DNA of 64,000 nucleotides from a virus (Duplodnaviria > Caudoviricetes), in the IMG/VR virus record IMGVR_UViG_3300031853_000013, positions 27,113 through 91,112 of that record; one strand, given 5' to 3'. Shown one piece after another: positions 15,100-64,000 of the stretch. The notes under the pieces were generated by a model. That model saw only the letters and a program-made list of their open reading frames with translations, did not search any database and was not told where the DNA came from. Made by a program: the position numbers and the translations under genes. How positions within the stretch are numbered: the stretch's first letter is position 1; every line of letters starts with the position of its first letter.

Positions 15100-15124
15100 A
15101 TTAAGAGGATTGAAAATCATGCGA
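15100..15124 (-). promoter_or_regulatory. phage promoter motif copy 14
   Basis: identical to copy 10. Confidence 0.75.
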
Positions 15125-15628: not shown

Positions 15629-15643
15629 ATAAAACACCTCCTC

Positions 15644-15668
15644 ATTATAGTCCCTGTCCCGTTTGCGA
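15644..15668 (-). promoter_or_regulatory. phage promoter motif copy 15
   Basis: TCGCA-AACGGGA-CA-GGGAC-TATAAT followed immediately by the GAGGAGG SD. Confidence 0.75.
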
Positions 15669-15688
15669 GAAAAACAAGGAGGAAGCTG

Positions 15689-15898: not shown

Positions 15899-15947
15899 AA
15901 TAATTCCTCCTTTGTTTTGTGGGGATCAGCCCTTTGCTTCTCCCTCT

Positions 15948-15972
15948 ATTAAGAGGATTGAAAATCATGCGA
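15948..15972 (-). promoter_or_regulatory. phage promoter motif copy 16
   Basis: identical to copy 10. Confidence 0.75.
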
Positions 15973-45726: not shown

Positions 45727-45734
45727 TGTGTGTA

Positions 45735-46082
45735 TTATTCTCCCTTTAAAAGTTGATCAACGAAAGCAGAACCTAAATCGACTGTCACTTTACCTGTGAT
45801 ATCTCCCATTCGTTCATCATGTAATTTCCACCAGTTGTCATTATATGCTTTTTCGGCTTTGGCGGCTTCGTTTCTAGCAGTTCCGGAGGCGCCTTTATTT
45901 TTCATGAGGTTGGTTTTAAATAACTTATAATCGCTCGCGTCTTGGCTAGCTTTTCTAAGTTTATCCATGCGCTTCTCGCGTATCTCGACCTTATGCTCCT
46001 GGTAGTACTGTTTATTGTACTCCTTTTCAGCGGCCTTTTGTTCAGGGTTTTTGCCCCAGGAATGGTATAAATATTTGGACAT
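45735..46082 (-). CDS. basic 'HSWGK' family protein
   Basis: YLYHSWGKNPEQKAAEKEYNKQYY. Confidence 0.75.
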   Translation of the reverse strand: MSKYLYHSWGKNPEQKAAEKEYNKQYYQEHKVEIREKRMDKLRKASQDASDYKLFKTNLMKNKGASGTARNEAAKAEKAYNDNWWKLHDERMGDITGKVTVDLGSAFVDQLLKGE

Positions 46083-46095
46083 TTATTCACCACCT

Positions 46096-47841: not shown

Positions 47842-47862
47842 ACACTAATTGCTTCTTTCATT

Positions 47863-49290
47863 TCATACGTCTTCACGCCAACCTCCGCCAGGACGTTTGG
47901 TGTATCTAAACGTTCCTTTATCAGAATCGGTGCGTCCTATACTGCCATCAAATGATGCTATACCAAGGGTATATGGTGACGATGATAATTTAGTAGTATT
48001 CAAGATAAGATCTCCTGATGAGTTAGTAGACACATTAGGTGTATGCCACTCGGTAGGCATAGCCAAATCAGCAAAGGAGGTTTTAGCAGCTTTTTCCATT
48101 CCTGAATAATAACTTAAATATGTGGCAGCAGATTGTGCAGCCTCTCCTTTACCCTTAGCGATTTGTTTTAATTCTTTAGCCGATTGTAATCCAGTGTTAA
48201 CATCAAAAACGTCAGGAGCTTTAGTCTTATTAAATATACCCTGTTTTCCCGTAGTAGTTGTAGCATTAGACGCCCAATCATCAGAAGTTATCGTATCTGA
48301 TTTACCGCCAGGCCCAGATTTAGGACCGTTAGGATTGTTATTATTGCCACCGGTATTATCGGAATCGTTGCCTTTATTTTTCTTGTTTTTGCCGTCACTG
48401 CTATTATCATTATTGTTTTTATTTTGTGCATTAATAGCATCAACAATCTTGTCCGAGTCAGACTTACCCTTCTTAGGCATAAGCGATTCCCAAGGCTGAA
48501 TCTTAAATACGGGAAGTTTCTCATAGCCGGCGATCTCGTTTACATTGGCAGCGATCTTATTATAGGCTTCATATGCCCCTACGGCAGTACCGGCAATGCC
48601 GACAAGAGTTTTGCCAGTAGAAGCAATCTTGTCAAGAGTGATCTTACCATCCTTAGCAGTCTGGCGATTTTCTTTCGTCTGCTTGAGACTCTCGAGAGCC
48701 TTCTTATCTTCTGGCTTGATCTTTTCGAGTTTGCTAATCCGATTAAGTGCCCGATCGAGCTCATCGTCATTGAGCATGGCACGATTCTTATAGACCTCTT
48801 TTGGAGTAGCGCGATTAATAAGATGTTCAACCTGCTTAGAAGACTTTTCGGTCTTAAACTGGTTCACCTTATTAATGCGAGCCATAGCCTTATCGAGCTC
48901 TTCATCGCTAAAGAGTTCTCGATTCTTATAGATAGCATCCTTATCGCCTTTAGCAATAAGCTTAGCCTTCTTATCTTCGATAGCCTTTTCGCGCTTTTGT
49001 CTAACTTCCTCAGCCTTTTGAAGTTTAAGTTTCTTATTCTCTTCCTTCTTTTCAGCCTTGAGCTTAAGACGCTTACGTTTTTCAGAATCTGTTTCCAATC
49101 TAAAAGATTTACGGGTCTTAAGCTTATTGGACACTGCATTTCTAGCCTGTCCAATGCCCCAGTGAATTCGTCCGAGCGGAGTTAGAGAACCATCCTTATT
49201 CTGATACCGTCTCTCGCCCCACTTTTGTCCAGTAACTCCGTAATGGGCCAGAAAGTTAACTTCAATTTTCTGGTTTTCCATCTCCATCAT
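47863..49290 (-). CDS. basic protein with an N-terminal 'HYGxxGQKWGxRRYQNxDGSLT' module
   Basis: module shared with 54785..55603; internal YKNRxxxxDxELDxAxxRI duplication. Confidence 0.8.
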   Translation of the reverse strand: MMEMENQKIEVNFLAHYGVTGQKWGERRYQNKDGSLTPLGRIHWGIGQARNAVSNKLKTRKSFRLETDSEKRKRLKLKAEKKEENKKLKLQKAEEVRQKREKAIEDKKAKLIAKGDKDAIYKNRELFSDEELDKAMARINKVNQFKTEKSSKQVEHLINRATPKEVYKNRAMLNDDELDRALNRISKLEKIKPEDKKALESLKQTKENRQTAKDGKITLDKIASTGKTLVGIAGTAVGAYEAYNKIAANVNEIAGYEKLPVFKIQPWESLMPKKGKSDSDKIVDAINAQNKNNNDNSSDGKNKKNKGNDSDNTGGNNNNPNGPKSGPGGKSDTITSDDWASNATTTTGKQGIFNKTKAPDVFDVNTGLQSAKELKQIAKGKGEAAQSAATYLSYYSGMEKAAKTSFADLAMPTEWHTPNVSTNSSGDLILNTTKLSSSPYTLGIASFDGSIGRTDSDKGTFRYTKRPGGGWREDV

Positions 49291-49687
49291 TCTTCACCTC
49301 CGTCATATCATCTCTGCCATTTTGAATTATTTCATTCATACTTTCGAGAGCCTTATCAATAAACTTCGGTATCGGAACTCCGAGCTTTTTCAGATTCTCG
49401 CAAATACTCACGACTTCCATAAACATTATGTATATGGAAAACGCTTTAAGAATGTAAGACGGAAAGTTTAGGCCGGCAGTAAAAATCTCACCAATAAATA
49501 AGATCATTATTTCCCCAAACTTTCTTCCTAGGCCTTCTCGCATTCTGTATGATTTAAGATGACCCGTAACCCAGGCATGCACAACTCCAGTAAGCACATC
49601 GATAGCCATTAAAGCCGCAGGAATAAGCATTATCCAACTAGGATTCCGAAAGTCAACATTAGTAAGTAACGTTTCAATCTCGTTCAT
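49262..49687 (-). CDS. holin (phage holin family 4-like)
   Basis: IDVLTGV...SYRMREGL.RK...EVVSICENLKKLGVPIP. Confidence 0.85.
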   Translation of the reverse strand: MNEIETLLTNVDFRNPSWIMLIPAALMAIDVLTGVVHAWVTGHLKSYRMREGLGRKFGEIMILFIGEIFTAGLNFPSYILKAFSIYIMFMEVVSICENLKKLGVPIPKFIDKALESMNEIIQNGRDDMTEVKNDGDGKPEN

Positions 49688-49763
49688 TGGTCAAATCCTT
49701 TCTAATTTCTAATTGCTAGCGGAGACCAGTCATAAACCAATCTCCGCCGACAACTTGTAATGC

Positions 49764-50303
49764 TTACTCGCCCTTCATGGACTCTACGACTCTGATGATC
49801 TGATTGATCTTGCGGATCTCGTACTCACTCTGAGCAGAATCCATCATCTGCTCGAGTTTGTCGATAATACGGTCATCGATACTGTGACCGCTATACCCGC
49901 CGTCATAAGACATCCTTGATCTCATACGACGTCCAGAAGTATCCATGTCACGTCCATCATAAGACATAGGTCTCATTTCTCGGCTAACATAGCTCCCAGT
50001 CATGGCATCTCTACCGCGAGCCTCAGAAGTATCCATGTAGCGATCATTTCCGTGAGAATACACTCTACCAGGTCCCATATCCCAACCATAAGAATAGGTA
50101 GTTTCCGGATAATAGGGCATCATGCGGTGACCCTCTGAAGTATCTTCATCATACTTGTCGCCGCGCATAAGCTTATCGATCTTTTCGATAAGGCACACAG
50201 CTTCTGTAGCGGTCTTAACCTCGTTGGGCGTAAGATCGGTCTTCTTAGCGAGGTCCTCGAGATTAGACTCGACGTTATCTCTGAGCTTCATAAGTGTTTT
50301 CAT
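49764..50303 (-). CDS. hypothetical protein of the Firmicutes-phage Gly/Asn/Gln-rich cluster
   Basis: RGRDAMTGSYVSR, GYSGH motifs. Confidence 0.75.
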   Translation of the reverse strand: MKTLMKLRDNVESNLEDLAKKTDLTPNEVKTATEAVCLIEKIDKLMRGDKYDEDTSEGHRMMPYYPETTYSYGWDMGPGRVYSHGNDRYMDTSEARGRDAMTGSYVSREMRPMSYDGRDMDTSGRRMRSRMSYDGGYSGHSIDDRIIDKLEQMMDSAQSEYEIRKINQIIRVVESMKGE

Positions 50304-50324
50304 TTTGATTCCCTCCTTCTAAAT

Positions 50325-50795
50325 TTAATACGTTACAGCGAGATCCGGTCTAGAGAACAGCAATGTAGGACTGTCAACAAGAACCGGAATGTCGCTAGTA
50401 TTACGAATAGAGAGGGATTCACAGCAGCCGTTCCAAATGTCGATGTTACGAGAACGACCAACATTGAAAAACTGCTCAACAGCGGCTGGAGTAGCTCGCA
50501 TGATGCTGAACGGTACAGTGGCACCATCGAGAGTAAATGCCAGAGAAATCTCGCCGACAGTCTCGCCTTCGGGCACTGCGATGTTGGCACCGAATGTAGC
50601 AAGATAAAGAGCACTAGAAGGCCCCTGACAACAGCATCTGTTATTTCTCCTCGGAACCCATCCGGACAGCAGGAAGTTACCGGTACCACTACGCCAACGT
50701 ACAAGACCTCTTGTGCAAGGAACCGGTGCAAGTGTAAACACAACTGCCTCGCCAGGATTAACCGTCTGTTGAGTGTTATTGGTGTATTCAGCCAT
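50325..50795 (-). CDS. beta-rich protein of the same cluster
   Basis: QTVNPGEAVVF...FGANIAVP. Confidence 0.75.
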   Translation of the reverse strand: MAEYTNNTQQTVNPGEAVVFTLAPVPCTRGLVRWRSGTGNFLLSGWVPRRNNRCCCQGPSSALYLATFGANIAVPEGETVGEISLAFTLDGATVPFSIMRATPAAVEQFFNVGRSRNIDIWNGCCESLSIRNTSDIPVLVDSPTLLFSRPDLAVTY

Positions 50796-50811
50796 TTGCT
50801 GTCACCTCCAA

Positions 50812-51732
50812 TCACGCATTGCAGCCACAGCCGGTGTAGAAATTCTGATTAGCGCAGCAGTTAGGATTCTGGACAACATATGCCGGAATGGGAGCCGGAT
50901 TCAGATACTGCTCAAGTGCCTGGGTCTGAGCCTGATTGTCAGCCAGGATAGCAGCACGGTTAGCCAGGCCCTCAGCGCGAATATTCTGTGCAGTAATCTG
51001 ATTCTGCAGGGATGCGTTCTGAGCCTTGAGAGCATCGATTTCCTGCTGACACAGCTTGTCCTGAATACTCTGAATACCGCTGTTAATGGTATTAAGCAGC
51101 ATCTGAGTGTTTGCAGTATTGTTCGTGATGATGTCACGAGTGTTGTTAGCTGCCTCGTAACGATCCTGACAATGCTCCTGAGCATTAGCGTACTTAGAAT
51201 CCAGAACAGCAGCACGATTCTCACAGCAACAATTCTGCTGAGCCATAGAAATGGTATTGAGCTGGTTAGACAGGCCAGTCTGAAGATTGAACATCTGGTT
51301 CATGTTAGCCATCTGGCGGGCGTTATCGGATGCCTCTGCAGCAGAGAAACCAGAATTTACAGCAGCAGTAACGCCGTTAAAGCCGTTGCACAGAGCCTGG
51401 TTAACGCCAGCGAAGCCAGAGCACATGCCCTGATTAACGCCAGAGAAACCATTAGTAACAGCACTGGTCAGACCATTGATACCAGACATTACTGCCTGCT
51501 GATCAAAGCCTCTCTGTACATCGTTGTTGGTGGAGTTGTTCATGATGTACGGCATAGCACCGTTACCATAACCGCCGCCCCAGCCATTGCCGTTGAAAGC
51601 GAACAGGAACAGAACCAACAGCCACCAAGCGCCATCGCCTCCGAAGTTTCCGAATCCGCCGTTGCCGTTACCATTGTAACCGGTAGGTGTTACGAGCATC
51701 GTTGTGTTTGTACCGTTTTCTGTGAGTGCCAT
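50812..51732 (-). CDS. Gly/Asn/Gln-rich coiled-coil protein with a hydrophobic WW segment
   Basis: GFGNFGGDGAWWLLVLFLF, QNCCCE, PIPAYVVQNP. Confidence 0.8.
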   Translation of the reverse strand: MALTENGTNTTMLVTPTGYNGNGNGGFGNFGGDGAWWLLVLFLFAFNGNGWGGGYGNGAMPYIMNNSTNNDVQRGFDQQAVMSGINGLTSAVTNGFSGVNQGMCSGFAGVNQALCNGFNGVTAAVNSGFSAAEASDNARQMANMNQMFNLQTGLSNQLNTISMAQQNCCCENRAAVLDSKYANAQEHCQDRYEAANNTRDIITNNTANTQMLLNTINSGIQSIQDKLCQQEIDALKAQNASLQNQITAQNIRAEGLANRAAILADNQAQTQALEQYLNPAPIPAYVVQNPNCCANQNFYTGCGCNA

Positions 51733-51798
51733 AGTGATTCCTCCTTAAATTAGTGAGATGTAAGAGTGAAATGAATAGTGAGAATATTGCTTATCGGA

Positions 51799-52137
51799 TC
51801 AATACTTATGTCCCGATTGTAGCCAACGGTCGAGGAAATTAAGACCCGATTCTATAAGATTAGCCGCGTTAGCAATATTAAACTTACGAGCATATTTCTT
51901 ATATACTTTTCTAGATTGTGCGATGGACTTAGCCATTTCATTATGTGCCATCTGCTGAGCACGTCGGGTCTTAATGTCTCCTTCTTTTTTGGAGGTCTTA
52001 ATGTTACGTCGAAGCTTCTTAGAACTAGATTGCTGTTCTTTTAGTGTCTTTTTCCATTTGTCTTTATGAGTCTTATAATACTCAATGTTGTATTCTTTCT
52101 TAGCAGACCCTTTGAATGCGTGCTCGAGAAAATCCAT
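51799..52137 (-). CDS. basic 'HSWGK'-related protein
   Basis: MDFLEHA...KEYNIEYYKTHKDKW. Confidence 0.75.
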   Translation of the reverse strand: MDFLEHAFKGSAKKEYNIEYYKTHKDKWKKTLKEQQSSSKKLRRNIKTSKKEGDIKTRRAQQMAHNEMAKSIAQSRKVYKKYARKFNIANAANLIESGLNFLDRWLQSGHKY

Positions 52138-52161
52138 TTTGAATTTACCTCTCTGGGACGG

Positions 52162-53046
52162 TTACACCAGCTTGCTCTTCTTTTCGTTGAGCTCTTTGAT
52201 CTTGTCGTTCAGTGCGCGAACCTTTTCAGCATTATTCTGAATGTTCTTAGCCAGCAGAGCAGCACCGGACTTATTAACGCCTTTCTCATTCAGTTCCTTA
52301 AGTCTCTTGGTGTCCTCATCCATTTCCTTCTTGATCACGGCCCGCTTGTTAGTAGCATTCATGATCTCGCCACTGATCTTCTGGAATTCCTGCTTCTGCT
52401 TCTCCTTAAACGCAGCGTTCTTGTTCTTAGCTGCCTGCTGTTGTGCGGCCATATTATCAGCATTTGCGTTAGCTCGTGTCTTTTCGCGTCTTGCCTTTGT
52501 ACCGCGTACTTCCTGTCGTGCGGCCTTTGCAGCTTCATTAGCAGCGGCAGCGTTAGCACGCTTAGCAGCTCTCTTAGCAAACGGGTCGTTTTTCACGGTC
52601 TTATCATAGTTGCTCTGTGCCTTTGTTCGACTAGCCTTCTGGGTATCGAGATTTGCTTTAGTCTTATTATAGTTGGATTCAGCGACCTCGAGTTCTTTAG
52701 CAGCCTTTTCAATATCCTTCTGATAAGCAGTACGCTGTTTTGCAATTTCCTTATCGTTAGCGCCTACATTACCGGCGCCTTCGAGGAATTTCTGATACTG
52801 ATTGCGGAGAGTATTCAGCTTATGCTTAGCGGCACCATAATCACGAACGGCGCTATCATGACGGGTCTGAGCACCCTCAATATTCTTATCGAGCTGGCTC
52901 ATGTTGTCCTTGGCGTTCTCACGATACTTCTTCCACTTGTCTTTGTTGCGTCTGTAATACTCAGCATTGTAGCGCTTCTCAGCAGCTTTCTGCTTAGGAC
53001 TCTTACCCCAGGAATGCATGAGAGCATCTTCGAGAAAATCTGTCAT
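52162..53046 (-). CDS. basic coiled-coil 'HSWGK' family protein
   Basis: ALMHSWGKSPKQKAAEKRYNAEYY. Confidence 0.8.
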   Translation of the reverse strand: MTDFLEDALMHSWGKSPKQKAAEKRYNAEYYRRNKDKWKKYRENAKDNMSQLDKNIEGAQTRHDSAVRDYGAAKHKLNTLRNQYQKFLEGAGNVGANDKEIAKQRTAYQKDIEKAAKELEVAESNYNKTKANLDTQKASRTKAQSNYDKTVKNDPFAKRAAKRANAAAANEAAKAARQEVRGTKARREKTRANANADNMAAQQQAAKNKNAAFKEKQKQEFQKISGEIMNATNKRAVIKKEMDEDTKRLKELNEKGVNKSGAALLAKNIQNNAEKVRALNDKIKELNEKKSKLV

Positions 53047-53060
53047 TGTGTTGTCCTCCT

Positions 53061-53669
53061 TTATTTGAATAGGTTCTTAACGAAATCGGTGCCTTTCTTA
53101 GCTGAATCAGAGATCATAGCAGCGCCCATCTTCCAGTTGGATTTGAATTCCTTGGCAGCTTTTTTCGCTTTGGCTTTCGCTAATTTAACATCATTAGCTC
53201 TAGTGTATGTCCGCTCATTAGCCTCGTACTGTTTAATGAGCTTATCGCGTTCGTTATCTGCCATTTGTCTAGCACTGGTATATCGCTTCATGTACTTCTT
53301 TTCGTCATCCCAGCTCATGCCAGATTCTTTGATCTTTAGTCGGCGATTATCTTCGCCAATCTCACGCTGATAACGAATATTGTCATCAACATATTTACCA
53401 ACATCCTGATAGCCCGGCGTCTTTTTAGTTTTCTTTGGCGCAATCGCCCATTTTCCCTGTGAATCTTTAGAGTTGTAATATCGCTTATTATATGTGTCCT
53501 CGTTTTCGTACTGGGATTGAGAAACGCCATTAATAGGCTTGGGTCCGTACTTGGTAGACCACCAGTCCTTATGCTTCCGATAATACTCAGCATTATACTC
53601 TTTTTCTCTAGCTTTCTGCTTAGGGCTCTTACCCCAAGAGTGCTGGAGAGATTCTAAAAAATCCGCCAT
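53061..53669 (-). CDS. basic 'HSWGK' family protein
   Basis: SLQHSWGKSPKQKAREKEYNAEYY. Confidence 0.8.
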   Translation of the reverse strand: MADFLESLQHSWGKSPKQKAREKEYNAEYYRKHKDWWSTKYGPKPINGVSQSQYENEDTYNKRYYNSKDSQGKWAIAPKKTKKTPGYQDVGKYVDDNIRYQREIGEDNRRLKIKESGMSWDDEKKYMKRYTSARQMADNERDKLIKQYEANERTYTRANDVKLAKAKAKKAAKEFKSNWKMGAAMISDSAKKGTDFVKNLFK

Positions 53670-53672
53670 ACC

Positions 53673-53900
53673 TTATCCTTTCCCCATAAGTTGGTTTGCC
53701 ATCTGAGCAACAGCGTTGAACTGTTCCTGTGAGATTTCCCCATTTTGAATTTTCTGCTGAATAATCTGCTGAGGAGACATCTGAGCTTGCTGCAAAAACT
53801 GTTGCTGGAACGTGTTGAACTGATTCATGAAATTGTTGAAGCCACCAAACTGCTGACCAAAGATCGGATTGTTTGGATTGAAATTAAACGGACCACCCAT
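53673..53900 (-). CDS. small Q/N/F-rich protein
   Basis: PQQIIQQKIQNGEISQEQFN. Confidence 0.75.
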   Translation of the reverse strand: MGGPFNFNPNNPIFGQQFGGFNNFMNQFNTFQQQFLQQAQMSPQQIIQQKIQNGEISQEQFNAVAQMANQLMGKG

Positions 53901-54394
53901 TACTGTTCTCCTTTCAATTCGTTGTATAGCGCGTTAATCTTTTCGCTCAGTTTGTCGAACTCCTCTTTACTAACCAGTGGCTCAGAACTGCTCAGTGTCG
54001 ATACTTGCTGAGATTGAGCAGGTTGCGGAACAGGAATAGGCTGAGTAAGTGTAGTGGTCGTTTCAGTGAGCGACCATGTACGAATCGGCAAATCTACTCC
54101 CCACATATCGCGGGCCTTCAGACAAAGTTCTCCCTCTGGAAAGTTGAAAAGAGCGATTGACTGTCCCGACGGTGCCGAGTAGTATCCATATTCAGCTCTG
54201 GAGTTAACCATGAAAACTGAGGTAATACCGCGCTGTTCGGTAGCCATCTGAGTAGCCGATGGTGTAGGATTAATCCACTGAGAGTAATTCGGTTGAGTCT
54301 GTGTAGATTGATTGGGTGTTGCAGTTGGTTGTGGTGTAGGTCTCGCAGTATTTGCTTGGTTGACCACACCAGGTACCCCTCCATAGTTTACCAT
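53900..54394 (-). CDS. Pro/Gln-rich hypothetical protein
   Basis: start MVNYGG after AAGGAG; VSKEEFDKL tail. Confidence 0.7.
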   Translation of the reverse strand: MVNYGGVPGVVNQANTARPTPQPTATPNQSTQTQPNYSQWINPTPSATQMATEQRGITSVFMVNSRAEYGYYSAPSGQSIALFNFPEGELCLKARDMWGVDLPIRTWSLTETTTTLTQPIPVPQPAQSQQVSTLSSSEPLVSKEEFDKLSEKINALYNELKGEQ

Positions 54395-54396
54395 TG

Positions 54397-54777
54397 TTAG
54401 TACTCCTTTCGCCAATAGTATATAGGTTCTTTGTCCCCGCTATCAAAAGAGTCGTAATAGTCCCCATTAACGACCGCTACAACATGCCCTGAGGTCTTAA
54501 GACAATGTTTGCCAATAGGATGATCTCTACAAAAGTCACGCACTGTGTAGATGTCGTATAGATCGTCCGGAAGCAAGTATTTAGTATACCCTCTACGTTT
54601 TAACATAAGACTCCACATCTTATCGTTGGAGGGCATGCTAAATTCTCGCCGACAAATATCCGTTAGTTCATCAAATGCCTCGAGCCATGTTAGATTCTCT
54701 AAGCGGCATAGCATCCGAATCACGCAATCAGTAACATGCTTACCTTTTGGATTGGGGTTGTAGTAGATGTAGGACAT
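54397..54777 (-). CDS. putative papain-like fold protein
   Basis: YNPNP...DCVIR...GHVVAV..GDYYDSFDS (Cys/His/Asp). Confidence 0.65.
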   Translation of the reverse strand: MSYIYYNPNPKGKHVTDCVIRMLCRLENLTWLEAFDELTDICRREFSMPSNDKMWSLMLKRRGYTKYLLPDDLYDIYTVRDFCRDHPIGKHCLKTSGHVVAVVNGDYYDSFDSGDKEPIYYWRKEY

Positions 54778-54784
54778 TTCGAGA

Positions 54785-55603
54785 TTAACCGTCCATTCTT
54801 ACGCCACGTTCAATAATAGGTTTAAGATTATTTAAATCATACTCAACACTAAGAATGTGCGATCCGTGTTCAGGATGGCTAAAATCGATATCCAATGTAT
54901 CCCAATCAGTAATATATGCGCCGGTGGCTTTCAACGCCTTTCTATATTCTTGGAGGGTCATCTTGTCTTTGACATCGTCTACGTTATCATTATATAAGTC
55001 ATCGGCTATGAACTTAGAAGTCTGTTTATATATAGTGTCACTGTTAGATTCCAATTTCTTAATCTTCGAATCCAACGTTTTAATGTGCTCATTTATATAT
55101 CCAGACTTATCACCGGGATCAACAACGGTGTATACTTTTATGTTATCCGGCCCGAGTTTAGATGACTTTTCAGCATAAATATCGCCGCCGAAATCGCCGG
55201 AGTCATCGACTTTCCAACCAGACTTCTTAAACGCATCTGATACCGTATTGTATTCGTCAGTGGCTGACTCTGGGCGTTTGATAGTTTTAGTTTTTGTTGA
55301 CACGCTAGAATTATGTGTCTTATTCTCCTTAGCAAGTCTACCGAGGTCAATAGCCGCTCCGACTAATCCCAACTTTCTGGAGTATTTAGTAACGTCGTAA
55401 TAGGTGCCATCTCCGCGTTCCCTTAAACGCTTGGCACCAGATTTATTCAGAGTTCCGTCAGAATTAAGATACCTCTTTTTACCGGCCTCTGTAAGAGATC
55501 CATCTTTATTCTGATACCGCCTTACGCCCCATTTCTGACCAAGAATGCCATGATGACAAAGAGTGTCCTGTTCGATAAGCGCTTCATACAAAAAATCTTG
55601 CAT
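54785..55603 (-). CDS. protein with an N-terminal 'HHGILGQKWGVRRYQNKDGSLT' module
   Basis: start MQDFLY coupled (TAATG) to upstream stop. Confidence 0.8.
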   Translation of the reverse strand: MQDFLYEALIEQDTLCHHGILGQKWGVRRYQNKDGSLTEAGKKRYLNSDGTLNKSGAKRLRERGDGTYYDVTKYSRKLGLVGAAIDLGRLAKENKTHNSSVSTKTKTIKRPESATDEYNTVSDAFKKSGWKVDDSGDFGGDIYAEKSSKLGPDNIKVYTVVDPGDKSGYINEHIKTLDSKIKKLESNSDTIYKQTSKFIADDLYNDNVDDVKDKMTLQEYRKALKATGAYITDWDTLDIDFSHPEHGSHILSVEYDLNNLKPIIERGVRMDG

Positions 55604-55980
55604 TAATCTTCCACCTCCAGTTTGTTCATTCCAGGGTCGACCTCGACATTGAGACGCCATTCTATTTCCTTAGCCTCTTCTTTCAATGTTGACATATGTG
55701 CAGAACTCTGAGGCGGATCGAATACCAATCGGACTTTGATGTAAATGTAGGTCTTAACTTGCGAAAGTCTCTCTGGTGGATAGTTATCGCCGAGAAAATC
55801 ACGCCAGGTTTGTGTATCGTCTTGCAGCATGAAGCCCGGAGTGCCGACACCGAGCTGCGTGAGATTAGCAAAATATGTATTGGCGTGCATCATGAGATCC
55901 ATATCGAAGTGAGTTATCTCACCAGGAGACGTGGACCCGCCAACTACTTTTCGAAGTTCATTAAGAATAGACGAATCCAT
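55603..55980 (-). CDS. head-tail adaptor-like protein
   Basis: SIL...LTQLGVG...VKTYIYIKVRLVFDPP...EWRL. Confidence 0.65.
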   Translation of the reverse strand: MDSSILNELRKVVGGSTSPGEITHFDMDLMMHANTYFANLTQLGVGTPGFMLQDDTQTWRDFLGDNYPPERLSQVKTYIYIKVRLVFDPPQSSAHMSTLKEEAKEIEWRLNVEVDPGMNKLEVED

Positions 55981-56994: not shown

Positions 56995-57042
56995 GATTAC
57001 TTCCTCCTTTTCTAATCTTTCTAATTTCTTTTTCTTTGTTTA

Positions 57043-57160
57043 GGTATTCTTTCTAAAGTGTTTGGGAGTCTTTTTCTCGAGACGAAAGGAGCTACATCTG
57101 GAGGGACGAAGACATGCTGGGACTGATGGAGGTGCCCCCAAACACTTTAGAAAGAATACC
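57043..57160. repeat. 24-bp perfect inverted repeat
   Basis: GGTATTCTTTCTAAAGTGTTTGGG at 57043..57066 and its reverse complement at 57137..57160. Confidence 0.9.
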
Positions 57161-57351
57161 CGCAAAACTACCGGAGGAAAATATAAAAAATATCCCTCCG
57201 GAGAATTTTAGGGGAGAGCGCCGATGCAGAGGGGGTGGGTTGTTTTATATACCCCCTCCCGGGTGCCTTTTATATTTTGGCACGTGGTCCCGGCACTCAA
57301 AAATTTTTTGAATCGAAATCTCAAAACCAAAACAAATAATTTTTCAGAAAA

Positions 57352-57609
57352 TTATTGTTCAAGTTTGTAAGTTTTTGTAATCTTTTTGTACAAACCATTT
57401 AAATTCCATTTAGCAAGTTTGTCACAAACTCTTTCGATTTCTTTGTTGTAATTGTAACTGCTTTCTTCATTCGAAGTGTTCGCAACTCGATCAATCAAAC
57501 CACAAGTGTTGTAACCCATAGAGGTATCGTAGGAGTACCACCTATCAAAGTCATCAAAGAAATCGTAAGGGTTGTCAATGGTTGTCAGCCATGTTTCGGT
57601 GACTTCCAT
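57352..57609 (-). CDS. small conserved protein coupled to the RNA polymerase gene
   Basis: WLTTIDNPYDFFDDFDRWY; starts 3 nt after the polymerase stop. Confidence 0.75.
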   Translation of the reverse strand: MEVTETWLTTIDNPYDFFDDFDRWYSYDTSMGYNTCGLIDRVANTSNEESSYNYNKEIERVCDKLAKWNLNGLYKKITKTYKLEQ

Positions 57610-57611: not shown

Positions 57612-60329
57612 TTAAGCACCTTCTTTCTTAACAGCACTAATAGTTGATGTAGAAACATCGAACTTCTCGGCAATGTCGCTAGTTGTCCATCCAGCGTCAA
57701 GCATTGCCATAATTCGTGCTTTGTTAGCAGTTGTTAATCCATTTGACGTTCTAGGCATAGCCCGTTCTTTAAGGGCGTCGTCGTCACAGTTTTTGAATAT
57801 AGCTTCCTGCTTGGTAGCGGATATAGCTCCAGCTTGGATTGCTTCCCATTCACGGTCTGACAGTACAATAGCCTGTCTCTTAGCACCTACGACCTCTCTA
57901 GCGTCTCGGAGAGCATTGTTTTTTACCTTCTTCAGGGCCTCCTTATCGTCTTTCAGCTCAGGGTTATCCTGCTTCTTAGTACGAACCGTCTGATTGGCAA
58001 TAAGCTGGGCCTTACGTTCGAGGGGGGCATTACGTCTAGCATCGTCAAGCTTCTTATCGAGGGATGCTATCTCGTCCTTATATGCCAGGGTGGTAGCCCC
58101 TCTGTTCCACTGGGCGGGTTCCACGCTAAGTGATGCCTTACGTGCACGATTACCAAGGGCCTTCATATAGTTGGCATAGTCGGCATATACCTCTTCCATC
58201 TCGTGTCCAGAGGACAGACTATAGGCATCCTTGGTCTCGTACATTTTAGTACTCTCAACTGGCTTATAGGGTTTGGTGCTAGTTCTGACTTCACCGTTCT
58301 TAAGTACCTTAGTCTTGGTGACAGTCTCAGGATGCTCAGTCCATTTGATTTCGCCAGTTTCCTCGTCAATCCATTGTCCTTTTCTTTCCCGACGATAGAC
58401 ATACTCAGGAGACTTGGCTTTTGACAGAAGTGTAGCAGCGCCACCACGAGCAGATCCCTGGTATTTAGTCTTAAGTTCAGCAATACCGTTATCGATATAC
58501 GACTGTTCGTAGTCTAACCGGTGTTTGTTAGCATCAATTACGACCATCGAATGTCTTGTAGCTCGAGCCAACTCGTTATCATCGGCTCCCTGAAGCGTCA
58601 TATCGGTAATCAGGTTTGTGATCATACCCATCTGTTTACCAGTATCAGCCTTTGTCATGACTCTCATGCCTTCATGGTATCCATATGTGGCCTTAGGATC
58701 AAAGTTCTTCAGTCCTTCGAGCGGGGCAGAGGTCTTTATCTTAACGTTCTTAGTGGGAATAACGAGAGCTGTATCACCGTCAAAGTCCGCACCAGACAAC
58801 TGTTCAGCAGTCTTGCTGTTGATACCGACTGCGTCAATAGCATTAGCGCCCATAACATTAGCGCCCTCTTTGTTCTTGTTATTAACCCTCAGTCTGGGCA
58901 TCTCAAACCGTCCGCCATGAGGGAATCTAACAAGTACAACTTCTTCGCCGTCTTTGTAATTGGGTGCATAAATCTCATTGTCTTTGAGCGTAGTAAGAGG
59001 CAGTAACACATGTGAAGCCTGTCTAGGCAAAGCGGCGGCCTTAAGATCGACTGCATCAGCATCACATCCATCAGCGAACTCAAGAAGCATCTTCTTCTTA
59101 AGAACGGGATTAGTGAGATTCATGATTGTCTCGAACTCTTCATCAGACTCGGCCTTTGCCAGATTGAGCTGTTTTTTAGCAAGCTCGATAGGCTGCTTAG
59201 ACAGAACCTGTGACGCAAGCGTCTTAGCCCATTCGCCCCATTTACCTTCTTCACGAACGATGTTAAGAGCACCTTGAACTTTTTCGCCTTTTTCATTCTT
59301 GTAAGAATTCTGGCGTTCCAAATATGCACCAAACGGGTTGTCCTTGTCGCCGGACTGAAGTTTTAGTACAGTATTATCTTTTTCGCCCATCATGGGAGTG
59401 CCGCGATGCTTATTTGTGTTGAATCGGATGTCCACGCCGTCAGGCAGATCGTCAGCATACACAGCCATGCCTTTAATATAGTGAGTTCCACCAACAGCGA
59501 TACGAACCTGTGCGTACCTTGAATTACCCATATCAAGATCAGCAACACCACGTCTAAGCTCCATAACGCCATCTTTAGCAAGTCCGCCGTCTTCAGCGTA
59601 AACTACACTGACTCGTTTAGGATCTACCTGAACAGGAGGCTTGATAGTACGCCGTTCCTTAGGATCTCCATCAACCATATACTCAACAGGAAGCGCAATC
59701 TTGTCCATATTGTCATATACTTCCTTTTGAGTGACGCCGGCCTTTACTAATACATCCATATTAGTCTTCTGGAGAGGATTCGAAATCTGAGGAATGTGAA
59801 GCTGGACTTTGTCATAGTCTCCGCTATCAACAAGCATCTTAACGGCACTCTTCATGGTATTCTCACTAATACCCATAAAGCGATTAACCTCAGCACCGAC
59901 ATCGACATAGTCCTTCTTGTCAACGGAGTCCTTTAAAATATCGGCGGTGGCATTAATACGGTTAGCCTTGACTTCAGCGCCATCCTTAAGAAGAGTACGA
60001 ACATAAGATTCATTACGATTCATGCGCTTACCGATAGCGACATTGGACATACCCTTTTCCTTTAATTTCTGGGCCATTGCAATATCGGCACGCTTGGATT
60101 CATTAGCGGCGATGCTAAGTCTCTTACGAAACTCTGTGGTGCTAATACCTTCCATACGAGCGATTTCGGTATCACCTTTGCCCTGGGCACGCCAGTAGTC
60201 GACCCTTGAAACGAAGTTCTTACTTCTCTGAGGCTTCTTACCAGATCCCCACGGATAGCGGCCTGAATGTCTGGGTGTGCCATAATGCATTAAAAAGTCT
60301 TCCTTGAATTCGTCAGACATCGGTATCAC
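57612..60329 (-). CDS. putative single-chain two-barrel (DPBB) DNA-directed RNA polymerase
   Basis: GADFDGD (DFDGD codons at 58773..58787) preceded by VRFP; HTH-like segments at both termini. Confidence 0.75.
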   Translation of the reverse strand: MIPMSDEFKEDFLMHYGTPRHSGRYPWGSGKKPQRSKNFVSRVDYWRAQGKGDTEIARMEGISTTEFRKRLSIAANESKRADIAMAQKLKEKGMSNVAIGKRMNRNESYVRTLLKDGAEVKANRINATADILKDSVDKKDYVDVGAEVNRFMGISENTMKSAVKMLVDSGDYDKVQLHIPQISNPLQKTNMDVLVKAGVTQKEVYDNMDKIALPVEYMVDGDPKERRTIKPPVQVDPKRVSVVYAEDGGLAKDGVMELRRGVADLDMGNSRYAQVRIAVGGTHYIKGMAVYADDLPDGVDIRFNTNKHRGTPMMGEKDNTVLKLQSGDKDNPFGAYLERQNSYKNEKGEKVQGALNIVREEGKWGEWAKTLASQVLSKQPIELAKKQLNLAKAESDEEFETIMNLTNPVLKKKMLLEFADGCDADAVDLKAAALPRQASHVLLPLTTLKDNEIYAPNYKDGEEVVLVRFPHGGRFEMPRLRVNNKNKEGANVMGANAIDAVGINSKTAEQLSGADFDGDTALVIPTKNVKIKTSAPLEGLKNFDPKATYGYHEGMRVMTKADTGKQMGMITNLITDMTLQGADDNELARATRHSMVVIDANKHRLDYEQSYIDNGIAELKTKYQGSARGGAATLLSKAKSPEYVYRRERKGQWIDEETGEIKWTEHPETVTKTKVLKNGEVRTSTKPYKPVESTKMYETKDAYSLSSGHEMEEVYADYANYMKALGNRARKASLSVEPAQWNRGATTLAYKDEIASLDKKLDDARRNAPLERKAQLIANQTVRTKKQDNPELKDDKEALKKVKNNALRDAREVVGAKRQAIVLSDREWEAIQAGAISATKQEAIFKNCDDDALKERAMPRTSNGLTTANKARIMAMLDAGWTTSDIAEKFDVSTSTISAVKKEGA

Positions 60330-60880
60330 TCCTCTTCTTTCCTCATTTGCAGTAATTCGTTAAAGTGTCGCATCTTATTCATAATTCCTTTAACATCTTC
60401 TGGATCTGGTATTTCAATCCGGACGTCTTTGTTCTGATAGATGCGCAATTCCATGTTTATGTCTTTTGGTCGTACGTCATACTCGCTACAAAAGATGGCT
60501 GCATAAATATAAAGCTGATCGAATTTTGCTTCGTGAGTCCCTGTCTTAAGATCGTGTATTCTAAGCATGTCATCACGGAAGCAGATAGCATCAGCAGTGC
60601 CATAGCAAAAATCGCTGAAATATAAAACGACTTCAGGACTCATCTTAAATCCAATAGCGTCGTTGATATACATGTTCAGCGTGTCTTTTGTTCTGGGCTG
60701 CTTTCGTCCGAGTGTGATAGCTTCTGCAGCAAATGCATGGAGTCGAGTACCCATAGCAGCCGCTTGTGCGTTTTCATAAATCTCGAGCAGTCGTTCGTCA
60801 TCATAGTTTAGCCAGGAATATTTACTCGCACTCAGGAAGGCGTGCATCCCGACTAGCCTTGAATGATTGTTCCATTTCAT
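60326..60880 (-). CDS. PD-(D/E)XK / Cas4-like nuclease (DUF2800-like)
   Basis: HAFLSAS...GTRLH...YGTADAI...IHDLKTG...QLYIYA. Confidence 0.75.
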   Translation of the reverse strand: MKWNNHSRLVGMHAFLSASKYSWLNYDDERLLEIYENAQAAAMGTRLHAFAAEAITLGRKQPRTKDTLNMYINDAIGFKMSPEVVLYFSDFCYGTADAICFRDDMLRIHDLKTGTHEAKFDQLYIYAAIFCSEYDVRPKDINMELRIYQNKDVRIEIPDPEDVKGIMNKMRHFNELLQMRKEEE

Positions 60881-61145
60881 CTAATACTTCCTCCATGTTC
60901 TCTGGATAGACAAAAGAAGAAAAGGACATCTTATTCATCGCATCTACATAGTAGTCCTGATTCGGCCGATGTGATTCTTTAGCAGAACGCTTGCATTCGA
61001 GTGTAGCCCATCTGTCTTTGTAAAATATTGTTAGATCGGGAATACCTTGAATGCATGTAGGATCGTTCTTAATCACAATACAACCAGGAAAGCGATTTGA
61101 AAGAGTGTCCTTTAATTTCTTTTGGAAATCAGATTCTTTAGCCAT
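60822..61145 (-). CDS. VRR-NUC-like nuclease / resolvase
   Basis: ESDFQ...GIPDL...LECK...RPNQ. Confidence 0.8.
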   Translation of the reverse strand: MAKESDFQKKLKDTLSNRFPGCIVIKNDPTCIQGIPDLTIFYKDRWATLECKRSAKESHRPNQDYYVDAMNKMSFSSFVYPENMEEVLDEMEQSFKASRDARLPECE

Positions 61146-61206
61146 TTGGCTCAGCTCCTTGTGTCGTCTGAATTTTGCAAAGCCGTGGAGGGCCTTGTTT
61201 ATTTTC

Positions 61207-61381
61207 CTATCATTAAGGGAGCTGTAAACTAGACGTCAACATATTGCCCCTGTAATGTTAGACCTTGCAAAATATAAAAGGCATACGCCATGGTTCTTGT
61301 TCTTCTAAAAACGCAAAGCCGTGGCGTAAGTTGTCTATTTCTATCATTAAGGGAGCTGTAAACTAGACGTCAACATATTGC
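61207..61381 (-). repeat. 41-bp direct repeat x2 containing promoter-like elements
   Basis: identical copies at 61207..61247 and 61341..61381; minus strand TTGACG-N16-CTTAAT. Confidence 0.85.
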
Positions 61382-61383
61382 AC

Positions 61384-61641
61384 TTATCTATATCCGCGAC
61401 CTTTCCTTTGGCGACAGTGTAGAGGGTTCTTAGGCACTGGGGTACCATCTACCCATTCAAACGTATAGCCTTTATGTGAATGCCGTTCTCCACACATGCA
61501 TTTAAATATAGCACTGCGATCGCCATTTATTCGGTTAGCAACAGCCTCAAATGTTGGATAGACTTCGTCTAGTTCGATTATCCTAACCATAGGATGATTC
61601 GGCGGTCTCCCAACTCGATCATATTTCTTTTTTCGCGGCAT
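61384..61641 (-). CDS. small NUMOD1-like DNA-binding protein
   Basis: VRIIELDEVYPT...SAIFKC...HKGYTFEW. Confidence 0.65.
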   Translation of the reverse strand: MPRKKKYDRVGRPPNHPMVRIIELDEVYPTFEAVANRINGDRSAIFKCMCGERHSHKGYTFEWVDGTPVPKNPLHCRQRKGRGYR

Positions 61642-61877
61642 TAGTTGGTCTCCTCAGAGCAGGCTCCTATCAAAAGCTCTAAGCTCATTCGGTATGTCTC
61701 GAGCATATCAGTTGAGTAATATGCTCTAACAGTACCGTCAGTTTCCTGTCTGGTGATACAATCCTCCTTGCTATCCATAAGCTTAGTGATAAGATCATGG
61801 CATTCCTTGAATGCGTCGGCTCTACCAGCCATATACATTTTTCCTGTATGCATAAATATAAAACCTCCTATTACCAT
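61641..61877 (-). CDS. hypothetical protein
   Basis: coupled to flanking genes. Confidence 0.55.
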   Translation of the reverse strand: MVIGGFIFMHTGKMYMAGRADAFKECHDLITKLMDSKEDCITRQETDGTVRAYYSTDMLETYRMSLELLIGACSEETN

Positions 61878-63130
61878 TTGAGAAAAGCTTTCTCATTAAA
61901 AGTCTTCTTACGATGTATTGCCATTTCGATGGCTCGGTCTATTGACGAGTTGGTCCGCATATGATAATAATGCAAAACCTTGAATGGTGTGTTCGCACGA
62001 TCAATCCGTCCTCTAGCTTGTTCCATGGTCTTGTAGGAATAAGTTTGAGAATAGAAGATCATAGTGTCTGTTGTGATACAATTCCAGCCTTCAGCACCAG
62101 CATTGTATTGTACTAAGTACGCCCAGTGATCTTCATTTGGTACTGGCTCATGCTTGTGACCGTTCCATTCAGCATATAAAAGTCCTATATCGTCGCACGC
62201 TTTTCTAAGCAACTCCAGCTCAACGTTAAAATTGTAGAATACTACGGCCTTAGCGTGTTCTCGCATAAGACTTTTAAACTTCATGATCTTGTCAGGATCT
62301 GTATTGACTAATTTACGTAGTGCTATGCACACCTCATTAGCATCCTTGAACGGTTCGTTGGTATCGGGATTCCATCGGTCTTTCATGATGATCTTGTATT
62401 TGTCTTTATCATACAAACTAACAACGGTTTCCTTTAAACATACCGTATCGCGTTTAAAGTCCATCTCAACCAGGATCTGTCGTCTCAGTCGTTCTAGCCG
62501 TTGCTCTTCTACATACCGTTCGATCTTGGGGTATTTAGAAAACCTTGAATACACGGCGTGTCGACTAACAAACTCGGTTTTGTTTTTATAGAAGCCGTTA
62601 GCTATGAACACTGGTATGTAATCAGACCAGTTGTCGCCAGGTGTAGCAGATAACAAAATCCATTTATTATTCTTTGTGATTTTTATGAACGACTTGGTCC
62701 ACATACCATAGCCTACCACGCGCTGTTCATCAAATATAAAAAACGCGTTATCGACATTCACATACTTCTTGATGTTATTCCAAGAGTCCACATGAATCTC
62801 GACATTGTCAAACTTATACCCAAACAAACCAAAAGGTATAGCTTCTTGCTCCCAGTCACACGTATCCCGTTTTCGAGCAGTGGTGATAATGTACAGTTTA
62901 ACAGGCTCCTTTAATTCTCGCATGTCAACATTGTACTCGTATACGTATTGACCATTTTTAACGTTAACATCTATACGCCCTAGTCCAACCACATTCTTAG
63001 TGAAATATAAAAGCGCTGTACGTGACTTACCAGAGCCAACACCGCCAACTAAGATACAGCCATTATGCATTTTATCAACAGCCAAATACTGATGTCGATA
63101 CAACGGTACTTTGAATTCTCCCACTTCCAT
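61871..63130 (-). CDS. SF2 (SNF2-like) helicase
   Basis: GVGSGKS, IFDEQ, LSATPG, AEGWN, QARGRIDR. Confidence 0.9.
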   Translation of the reverse strand: MEVGEFKVPLYRHQYLAVDKMHNGCILVGGVGSGKSRTALLYFTKNVVGLGRIDVNVKNGQYVYEYNVDMRELKEPVKLYIITTARKRDTCDWEQEAIPFGLFGYKFDNVEIHVDSWNNIKKYVNVDNAFFIFDEQRVVGYGMWTKSFIKITKNNKWILLSATPGDNWSDYIPVFIANGFYKNKTEFVSRHAVYSRFSKYPKIERYVEEQRLERLRRQILVEMDFKRDTVCLKETVVSLYDKDKYKIIMKDRWNPDTNEPFKDANEVCIALRKLVNTDPDKIMKFKSLMREHAKAVVFYNFNVELELLRKACDDIGLLYAEWNGHKHEPVPNEDHWAYLVQYNAGAEGWNCITTDTMIFYSQTYSYKTMEQARGRIDRANTPFKVLHYYHMRTNSSIDRAIEMAIHRKKTFNEKAFLKW

Positions 63131-63338: not shown

Positions 63339-63363
63339 ATAAAGGGAGATGACCAGTTTGCGA
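63339..63363 (-). promoter_or_regulatory. phage promoter motif copy 17
   Basis: TCGCA-AACTGGT-CA-TCTCC-CTTTAT-GA. Confidence 0.7.
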
Positions 63364-63388: not shown

Positions 63389-63865
63389 TTAGAACGGCTC
63401 AGTTTCATCGACCAGATCCATGTCAGCATACTTCTCTTCGAATCGGTCCTGAACGATAGTAAACCACGCCTTCTTCAGATATGCCTTGATGCCGCTGCGG
63501 CCATTCATCTCCCACTGATACGGAGAAATGATAATATCAGCACACTCGATTTCAGCATAGTCAAGAAGACCTATAGAGTCCTCATCAAGCTTTGTGCTCT
63601 TCTTACCGCTAATCATGCGGACCGTCGGCGGAACATGATCAAACTTAACCTCAACATTGAGATACGGCTGCGGATCGTCACCTTCTTCAAGCGGCTTGAG
63701 ATACTTAACGTTCCAGCCCTCTTCCTCCAGACTAACTGCCTGCTCATGAGACAGAAGTACCGCGAAGGTTCTCTTACCAGTAGTATTATACCGGTCGCAC
63801 TCACCTCTGAAGTTTCTGAACTTGATTACTGCGTTCTCGATCTGAATATTGTTTACCTTAGCCAT
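63389..63865 (-). CDS. single-stranded DNA-binding protein
   Basis: FRNFRG...GKRTF...GIKAYLK; acidic C-terminus ending EPF. Confidence 0.75.
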   Translation of the reverse strand: MAKVNNIQIENAVIKFRNFRGECDRYNTTGKRTFAVLLSHEQAVSLEEEGWNVKYLKPLEEGDDPQPYLNVEVKFDHVPPTVRMISGKKSTKLDEDSIGLLDYAEIECADIIISPYQWEMNGRSGIKAYLKKAWFTIVQDRFEEKYADMDLVDETEPF

Positions 63866-63944
63866 AATATAGGCCCTCCTTAAAATATAAAAATTTATTT
63901 ATAACTGCTCAATTAGAACAGTTATTGATAGAAAAAAAAAGAAA

Positions 63945-64000
63945 GAATAGTATAGACGGAATTGAACCGCCAATCTTCCGCGGGTAAGCGGACGTGTTCA
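63945..64000 (-). ncRNA. tRNA-like RNA 3 (5' part outside the window)
   Basis: GAACAC, TCCGC-TTACCC-GCGGA, AGATT, T-arm GGCGG-TTCAATT-CCGTC, then TATACTATTC and U-tract with no CCA. Confidence 0.6.

Follow-up and report, generated by a model that had tools for sequence, protein, structure and literature searches.

The 64-kb window analysed here is the right-hand part of a 91,112-bp IMG/VR virus record (IMGVR_UViG_3300031853_000013) and encodes, on the minus strand that carries nearly all of its genes, a predicted single-chain two-barrel RNA polymerase of about 100 kDa that belongs to the phage 1706-ORF75 / PHROG 4291 family. The same genome carries a discrete promoter class, TCGCA-N7-CA-N5-YWTWAT, and this motif is tightly associated with the polymerase gene across phages of Firmicutes and Actinobacteria. 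Based on the fold and catalytic motifs of the protein, the geometry and distribution of the promoters, and the N-terminal peptide and annotation of the family, a transcription system is proposed in which the enzyme is probably carried in the virion, delivered with the DNA, and used to switch on phage genes from its own promoters without a host sigma factor. The proposal as a whole is regarded as moderately probable.

The 905-aa open reading frame (ORF) at 57612-60329 that an earlier note on this DNA had described is present on the minus strand, but the GTG start listed for it (60329) is less likely than the ATG at 60320. The latter is the better start because a GAGGAG Shine-Dalgarno sequence lies 8 nt 5' of it, a database protein 99% identical to the polymerase begins at the same methionine and is 902 aa long, and this methionine is invariant among 52 homologues. 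The product is therefore most likely 902 aa rather than 905 aa in length; residue numbers follow the 905-aa numbering throughout. The gene and its domains are laid out as follows.

57612-60320, minus strand: predicted single-chain two-barrel RNA polymerase gene, 902 aa from ATG 60320 (phrog_4291, 1127 bits over the full length)
60222-60329, minus strand: N-terminal disordered peptide, residues 1-36, with invariant L-x-H-Y-G...S-G-R-Y-P-W-G-S-G (predicted local distance difference test (pLDDT) <50; at best a variant of the DUF7211 tag, sub-threshold)
59982-60098, minus strand: N-terminal helix-turn-helix (HTH), residues 78-116 (HTH_23/HTH_38 E 2e-4, under the Pfam cut-off; the model is helical here, and Koert et al. 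report this HTH)
59697-59984, minus strand: winged-helix-like domain, residues 116-211 (weak VIA-align match, Z 8.2, to TFIIIC tau138 eWH, 5aim_B, with 87 residues aligned)
58110-59645, minus strand: catalytic two-barrel core, residues 229-740, with Q274-x-R276...K286-G287, R468-F-P470 and D515-F-D-G-D519 (alignment and fold comparison)
58773-58787, minus strand: DFDGD metal-binding loop (alignment)
57627-57728, minus strand: C-terminal HTH, sigma-region-4-like, residues 868-901 (Pfam HTH_23 E 1.3e-10; Sigma70_r4 E 1.8e-4, under the cut-off)

Fold comparison was used because sequence searches of solved structures were uninformative: a single-sequence search returned nothing, and a profile search returned only HTH matches, with the DFDGD loop at E ~0.7-0.9 against P23-45 gp96 and AR9 beta-prime. 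An AlphaFold2 model was built from the 52 diverse homologues (mean pLDDT 84.6; predicted template modelling score 0.75), and residues 1-36 are disordered in it. Against the PDB, Foldseek (probability 1.00) matched the model to QDE-1 (E 5.9e-10), with maize/Arabidopsis RDR2 also among the top matches, to P74-26 gp62 (E 4.1e-6) and P23-45 gp64 (E 1.4e-5), and more weakly to P23-45 gp96 and then beta-prime/Rpb1 chains. A VIA-align run against 48,161 chains gave RDR2 at Z 15.8 (364 residues, root-mean-square deviation 4.1, model residues 229-738), QDE-1 at Z 14.2 (374 residues), P74-26 gp62 at Z 11.8 (341 residues), crAss-like phi14:2 gp66 at Z 8.5 and P23-45 gp96 at Z 8.4, while isolated double-psi beta-barrel domains aligned at Z 9-10 on residues 435-527; matches to the two-barrel superfamily span model residues 229-745. 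A BFVD fold search added only further predicted phage ‘RdRP’ proteins and crAss-like pieces.

The GADFDGD motif (residues 513-519) and the upstream RFP motif (residues 468-470) were both located as expected, and R276, K286, G287, R468, P470, D515, D517 and D519 are invariant in the 52-homologue alignment; attention to eight invariant residues around the catalytic magnesium had been drawn in PMC2919709. The distance from the arginine of R-x-P to the first aspartate of DxDGD is 47 residues here and 45 in QDE-1 (PMC2919709). For the conserved Asp and the two basic residues of the beta-like barrel, the candidates are D253, conserved to at least 90%, and the invariant R276 and K286; D709, R738 and K743 of QDE-1 are only putative counterparts. 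Because of the fold matches and the invariant catalytic residues, the predicted two-barrel polymerase identity is well supported, in agreement with what had been suggested from the sequence. The HTH-like segments that had been noted at both ends stood unequally: the C-terminal one is clear, whereas the N-terminal one, the GMSNVAIGKRMNRNESYVRTLL segment, lies in the expected place but stays below threshold.

The promoter motif had been counted 17 times in the window; 16 of these sites match exactly, as against 0 in 100 shuffles, and the remaining one is a TCGTA variant. The whole 91-kb genome holds 30 exact sites and the variant, all 31 on the coding strand, almost all intergenic, and 35-55 nt 5' of a ribosome-binding site. 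With a weight matrix the sites score at least 27 bits and the next-best sequences at most 14.3 bits. No site falls between window positions 16 and 57 kb or in the 41-kb structural module, and a search with the matrix for weaker TCGCA sites in this module and in the 56995-57351 gap beside it found none. TCGCA lies 14 nt from the hexamer, with no conservation upstream of it; the class lacks a -35 element and a TG extension, and the position equivalent to A-11 of sigma-A promoters is T in 16 of 30 sites. Six bases 3' of the hexamer are conserved (A-G-R-R-g-G), the first always being a purine. The shuffles, the weight-matrix gap and these departures from the sigma-A pattern bear out the claim of a real, discrete promoter class with non-sigma-A geometry. 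Several cassettes here, like six of those in phage 1706, have a Shine-Dalgarno sequence that begins 1-4 nt 3' of the hexamer and would be lost from transcripts starting 6-8 nt downstream; transcription would therefore start at or next to the purine immediately 3' of the hexamer. Scans of the window for transfer RNA genes and Rfam families, intended to anchor transcript starts, gave no matches. The sites in the window are the following.

63339-63363, minus strand: exact match, 5' of the helicase-nuclease-exonuclease-polymerase operon; equivalent position occupied in relatives
15948-15972, minus strand: exact match
15644-15668, minus strand: exact match; Shine-Dalgarno GAGGAGG starts 1 nt after the hexamer
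15100-15124, minus strand: exact match
14792-14816, minus strand: exact match
14461-14485, minus strand: exact match
14055-14079, minus strand: exact match
13684-13708, minus strand: exact match
13363-13387, minus strand: exact match
12820-12844, minus strand: TCGTA variant, 29.5 bits
12352-12376, minus strand: exact match
11791-11815, minus strand: exact match
11047-11071, minus strand: exact match
9908-9932, minus strand: exact match
6368-6392, minus strand: exact match
1766-1790, minus strand: exact match
11-35, minus strand: exact match

Several cassettes at 13363-15972 (minus strand) are near-duplicates: one terminator hairpin (GAGGAAGTGTAACAGCTTCCTC and a T-run) precedes three promoters, and three units that contain paralogous small ORFs open with an identical promoter and leader (TCGCATGATTTTCAATCCTCTTAAT AGAGGGAGAAGCAAAGGGCT).

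The geometry CGC-N8-CA-N5-TATAAT-purine is common to phages 1706, Mudcat and ReqiPepy6 and to many metagenomic relatives. Lactococcus phage 1706 has 13 sites of the form yCrCA-N7-CA-N5-TATAGT-AGAAAG, all within 24-46.5 kb, and its structural genes are without a site. Arthrobacter phage Mudcat has seven sites (CGCG-N7-CA-N5-TATAAT-R), one of them directly 5' of the endonuclease-exonuclease-polymerase genes, and Rhodococcus phage ReqiPepy6 has one in the equivalent position 5' of the polymerase operon. Among 80 polymerase-centred IMG/VR loci (G+C 31-53%), at least 12 carry a TCGCA-type site ~0.9-1 kb upstream of the gene under a strict pattern. In the reverse direction, a scan of IMG/VR for the exact motif found that 32 of 49 motif-bearing records encode the polymerase, all at E<1e-85, and that the fraction is 18 of 20 at the same level among records at least 90% complete. 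A check that had been set beforehand, whether gene and motif occur together in distant relatives, thus came out positive, and the association is tight across the two phyla.

Packaging of the enzyme in the virion, which had been put forward from the N-terminal sequence, received indirect support from the annotation of an orthologue and from a shared tag. ORF75 carries the label ‘structural protein’ in the phage 1706 record as its depositors wrote it (EU081845), and the same unqualified label is given to ORF6, 7, 11, 12, 17, 20, 21 and 71, with ORF13 as ‘major structural protein’; homology-based calls in this record carry the word ‘putative’ (putative terminase, putative portal). RefSeq later renamed ORF75 “RNA-dependent RNA polymerase”, and the annotation of ReqiPepy6 gp106 reads “similar to 1706_gp75, structural protein”. 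Gel electrophoresis and mass spectrometry on purified particles were reportedly the basis for identifying the structural proteins of 1706. In the polymerase itself, the predicted L-x-H-Y-G peptide (FLMHYG) was found, and H15, G17, S22, G23, R24, G28 and G30 are invariant across the family, like the catalytic residues, even though the segment is disordered. It opens like the DUF7211 tag of head-module proteins (L-x-H-Y/H-G...K-W-G), of which it could at best be an expanded variant. Two head-module ORFs beside the terminase gene match DUF7211 at E 1e-6 to 3e-5, the 475-aa product passing the cut-off (28.2 bits) and the 291-aa product falling just under it (23.8 bits). The tagged head-module ORFs, which together span 44470-55660 on the minus strand, are listed below, followed by the protease-capsid fusion.

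54785-55660, minus strand: DUF7211-tagged head-module ORF (profile match)
47863-49290, minus strand: DUF7211-tagged head-module ORF (profile match)
53061-53669, minus strand: LxHSWGK-type tagged head-module ORF (N-terminal motif)
52162-53046, minus strand: LxHSWGK-type tagged head-module ORF (N-terminal motif)
51799-52137, minus strand: LxHSWGK-type tagged head-module ORF (N-terminal motif)
45735-46082, minus strand: LxHSWGK-type tagged head-module ORF (N-terminal motif)
44470-45726, minus strand: portal, opening with RLQHGW (N-terminal motif)
42556-44463, minus strand: prohead protease-major capsid fusion, 635 aa, with a very acidic linker

The motif hydrophobic-x-His-[YHSGAR]-[GWF] occurs within the first 60 residues of 14 ORFs of the genome, compared with 2.2 +/- 1.5 in shuffles, and nine of these ORFs fall in the stretch from the portal gene, which is counted among them, to the polymerase gene. 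In relatives, the DUF7211 tag heads up to six ORFs between connector and portal. From the shared tag and the orthologue annotation, the polymerase is probably packaged. A further argument concerns its expression: the polymerase operon lies behind its own promoter type, both in this genome and in relatives, so the first dose of enzyme would have to arrive with the DNA if the host enzyme cannot use this promoter. Most histidines of the acidic linker in the protease-capsid fusion stand in a hydrophobic-x-His context, one example being ILAH directly in front of the capsid domain, and eight relatives share K263-H264-N265 and L285/H287 without change; this context fits a possible protease cleavage site. 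Trimming of the polymerase N-terminus by the prohead protease after His15 is nevertheless the weakest step of the proposal and is offered only tentatively.

The four LxHSWGK ORFs share a leader, DFLE..L.H-SWGK.P.QKA.EK.YN.EYY, which is distinct from DUF7211 and is also of the hydrophobic-x-His type. ORF7 of phage 1706 (2501-3889), labelled structural, contains two DUF7211 motifs at about residues 28-46 and 171-192, an arrangement that suggests either cutting into pieces or two tags. A literature search returned no paper that mentions DUF7211 or the GMKWG motif, and the Arthrobacter phage paper is silent on promoters and on virion proteomics.

In the proposed mechanism, the enzyme would combine a floppy N-terminal tag, an HTH and winged-helix region, an RDR/QDE-1-like core that holds the magnesium-binding DFDGD loop, and a helical C-terminal part that finishes with a sigma-4-like HTH. 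By analogy with YonO, it would most likely act as a polymerase on DNA templates, and the fused HTHs may recognize the phage's own class of promoters, TCGCA-N7-CA-N5-YWTWAT followed by A-G-R-R-G, with initiation on, or immediately beside, the purine that follows the AT-rich hexamer. The 31 promoters of the genome, 17 of them in the window and one 5' of the polymerase's own operon, would stand at the start of all transcription units in the two-thirds of the genome given over to accessory and replication genes, with none in the structural module. Taken to its full extent, the proposal would make this the smallest RNA polymerase known to be delivered by virions, a two-barrel enzyme that is free-standing, with built-in sigma-like HTHs that is loaded into the head via an N-terminal address peptide and reads one portable ~31-bp promoter conserved in thousands of Firmicutes and Actinobacteria phages, independently of the host and as a single protein; in this strong form the idea is possible but falls a little short of an even chance.

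Several points weigh against the proposal. The evidence from the ‘structural protein’ label consists of the wording of a record, and DNA-binding proteins can co-purify with phage particles. Against the 25-residue DUF7211 profile, residues 1-36 of the polymerase reach E 0.034 and 14 bits (cut-off 27), are aligned at profile positions 5-12 only, and so stay sub-threshold. The polymerase gene is joined here to replication genes and not to head genes, and the TATAAT-like hexamer could allow weak use by the host polymerase. YonO, which transcribes late genes, has no reported virion role (PMC5467207). All motif-bearing phages belong to one lineage, and shared descent alone could therefore explain part of the association between gene and motif. 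In the IMG/VR record of one close relative (88,655 bp; G024, locus L207), whose TerL is 73% identical and which carries TCGCA-type sites, neither a polymerase nor a helicase nor an exonuclease was detected; this record is probably truncated at the polymerase end, and loss of the gene in the relative is the less likely reading. Biochemical work on members of the PHROG 4291 family was not found in the searchable literature.

The only other transcription-type protein in the genome is a fusion of sigma-70 region 4 with the RNA polymerase alpha C-terminal domain (alphaCTD), which may redirect host polymerase.

4993-5625, minus strand: sigma-70 region 4 (E 6.5e-8) and alphaCTD (E 5.7e-15) fusion, 210 aa, without sigma region 2

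This fusion was considered as a general reader of the motif and rejected, because it is absent from 21 of 22 motif-bearing records, 1706 and Mudcat included; the remaining record has one weak match.

A different account would have the polymerase made after infection and kept out of the virion. Host polymerase would fire the TATAAT-like sites weakly or use another promoter, the enzyme would then boost its own operon and the other 30 units, and the 1706 label would reflect co-purification. YonO, which alone among the phage homologues has been characterised, is expressed from the phage genome, in a report that is silent on virions (PMC5467207); the polymerase gene overlaps the end of the exonuclease gene within the replication block, and 10 of the 30 sites have a perfect or near-perfect TATAAT. 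The promoter geometry fits poorly with such host use, given the missing -35 element and TG extension and the frequent T at the A-11 position, and sigma-70-type promoters are not enriched around the operon (29 in a scan of 53-64 kb, against 23.7 +/- 4.9 in shuffles). This account also leaves the invariant disordered tag unexplained and runs against the structural label given by the 1706 depositors, and it is considered unlikely. Alternatively, host polymerase redirected by a phage factor could read the promoters, and the two-barrel enzyme would transcribe the promoter-less 41-kb structural operon, as YonO does the SPbeta late genes, or make replication primers. The structural module, having no TCGCA site, needs some polymerase, the polymerase gene lies directly upstream of it, and the sigma4-alphaCTD fusion is at hand in the genome. 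This fusion is not conserved in the motif-bearing relatives, however, whereas the polymerase is; the motif is conserved among phages whose hosts belong to two phyla with different promoters of their own, promoter conservation reaches into the first transcribed bases, and a distinct conserved late-promoter motif was not detected in the 56995-57351 gap. Such a division of labour is therefore judged very unlikely.

The protein could also be a true RNA-dependent RNA polymerase (RdRP), as many database records name it, that copies or amplifies phage or host RNA. The cellular RdRPs RDR2 and QDE-1 are its best structural matches, and there is a weak Pfam RdRP match at E 5.4e-4. QDE-1 itself takes DNA templates as well, according to structure entry titles, and a class of DNA promoters travels with the phage gene. 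The name “RNA-dependent”, inherited by the family from its closest structural relatives, is probably wrong, because the homologous YonO is DNA-dependent and three DNA-binding-type modules (the N-terminal HTH, the winged-helix-like domain and the C-terminal HTH) are fused to the core; a role in RNA copying is accordingly hardly credible. The preferred reading is that of a DNA-dependent transcriptase, probably carried in the virion.

Among known proteins, 1706 ORF75 and its orthologues (Mudcat gp94, ReqiPepy6 gp106 and the ‘putative RNA polymerase’ of Faecalibacterium phage Oengus) are homologous over the full length, with 39% identity to ORF75 (across 998 columns) and ~50% to the actinophage proteins. 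They share the N-terminal peptide, the terminal HTHs, the DFDGD loop and the promoter geometry, as well as an exonuclease upstream, an 85-aa ORF downstream and a position near the genome end. The genome described here is larger (91 kb, against 43-77 kb in that group), and ORF75 differs in a ~120-aa insert and in that its gene follows the endolysin gene, not directly the exonuclease gene. YonO of the Bacillus subtilis prophage SPbeta is likewise a single-chain phage RNA polymerase of the two-barrel superfamily, linked to the present family through the grouping in PMC2919709; it is DNA-dependent and transcribes a late operon from a single promoter of undefined sequence (Forrest et al. 2017, PMC5467207). 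Neurospora QDE-1 and plant RDR2 (Pfam PF05183) are the best matches to the catalytic core but are eukaryotic RNA-silencing enzymes without HTH modules or promoters, and identity to them is only 13-16%. In Thermus phages P23-45 and P74-26, gp64/gp62 are non-virion enzymes, and the tape-measure-fused gp96 is virion-delivered and starts early transcription (PMC10770324). These are also minimal phage two-barrel enzymes; there, the virion enzyme lies within a tape measure of 5002 residues and hands over to a second enzyme, whereas here one free-standing ~900-aa enzyme with fused HTHs would do both jobs. The virion RNA polymerase of N4 (3500 aa, T7-like fold) and phi14:2 gp66 (2180 aa, two-barrel) offer the same logic of an injected polymerase with phage-specific early promoters, but they are 2.4 to 4 times larger and lack fused sigma-like HTHs, and packaging has been demonstrated for them but is a prediction for the present family. 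As in T7-type promoters, one discrete ~31-bp promoter combines an upstream specificity element, an AT-rich element that directly adjoins the presumed start, and conservation that continues into the purines transcribed first; the polymerase folds are unrelated, and the start site here is a deduced one.

The polymerase gene is a new member of a known, computationally described family. It matches the PHROG 4291 (“RNA-dependent RNA polymerase”) profile at 1126.8 bits, with residues 7-903 on profile positions 6-907 of 909. Related proteins occur in ~250 records of the phage collection, the best at 48-50% identity, from phages that infect Arthrobacter, Gordonia, Streptomyces, Rhodococcus, Lactococcus and Faecalibacterium, and a megablast of 14 kb of the window against this collection gave no match. 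The metagenomic family comprises more than 8000 clusters at 90% identity, at least 846 clusters at 50% identity match the polymerase at E<=1e-30, and at least 448 of ~2.9 million IMG/VR viral contigs encode a relative. Ruprich-Robert and Thuriaux (PMC2919709, 2010) counted the 1706 protein as one of five “YonO-like” families, and Koert et al. (bioRxiv 10.1101/842583, 2021) described the actinophage/Lactococcus/Faecalibacterium protein as a putative RNA polymerase with DxDGD, an HHpred match to Pfam RdRP and HTH domains at both ends. In their account only ~10 genes are conserved lineage-wide, and the polymerase alone is described with HTH domains. The novelty claimed for the enzyme in the earlier note was thus overstated, as the family, the DxDGD loop and the two terminal HTHs had already been reported in these two papers. 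The promoter geometry common to the relatives, the linkage seen in the reverse scan and the 1706 ‘structural protein’ label go beyond them. The idea at the level of the system, a free-standing enzyme with built-in HTHs, a cross-phylum promoter and probable virion delivery, was found in no paper and would be a new variant among virion polymerases, beside those of N4, crAss-like phages (gp66), phiKZ and the P23-45 tape-measure fusion, plausible but unproven.

Two-barrel polymerases do all cellular transcription, and minimal single-chain versions reveal the capacity of the core itself. Members of the family are known from phages of Lactococcus, Arthrobacter, Streptomyces, Gordonia and Rhodococcus that can be cultured. 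If the enzyme alone reads the TCGCA-type promoter, it would provide a compact, host-independent transcription tool for Gram-positive bacteria and would explain the expression of two-thirds of the genes of these phages. If it rides in the virion, it would represent a fourth and much smaller design of injected polymerase and would give DUF7211-type tags a function.

The neighbourhood of the gene is conserved in the PHROG 4291 family and consists of a helicase, a nuclease, a RecB-type exonuclease, the polymerase and a small conserved ORF, adjoining the packaging module; unlike the gene in the replication block here, that of 1706 ORF75 stands among lysis genes near the genome end. The neighbours in the window are as follows.

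60326-63130, minus strand: genes 5' of the polymerase in the same transcription unit, namely helicase (61871-63130), two small ORFs, endonuclease (60822-61145) and RecB-like exonuclease (60326-60880)
57352-57609, minus strand: conserved 85-aa ORF, phrog_4303, always 3' of the polymerase gene (neighbourhood comparison)

A 357-bp gap (56995-57351) separates the polymerase block from the first gene of the packaging module and contains G+C-rich blocks and a perfect 24-bp inverted repeat (57043-57066 / 57137-57160, 70 nt apart). The physical genome ends (cos) of relatives fall in the gap 3' of the polymerase gene: many relative contigs stop 300-500 bp after this gene, and the 3' cos overhang of ReqiPepy6 lies 540 bp after it. 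No distinct conserved late-promoter motif or other repeated motif was found 5' of the structural genes, this gap included, and one possibility is that transcription begun at the last promoter continues over the joined ends into these genes, in the manner of the lambda late operon. At the other side, a promoter site at genome positions 214-238 points across the record end toward the gene of a single-strand annealing protein (window 63389-63865, with 63866-64000 between), which suggests that the record is circularly permuted with respect to the true ends. In phage 1706 (51640-52050; ~5640-6050 of locus L003), a 450-bp gap 5' of the polymerase gene contains four copies of a ~35-bp repeat (TATCACGAAAAAACTTCGGG...), which could be iterons or operator sites.

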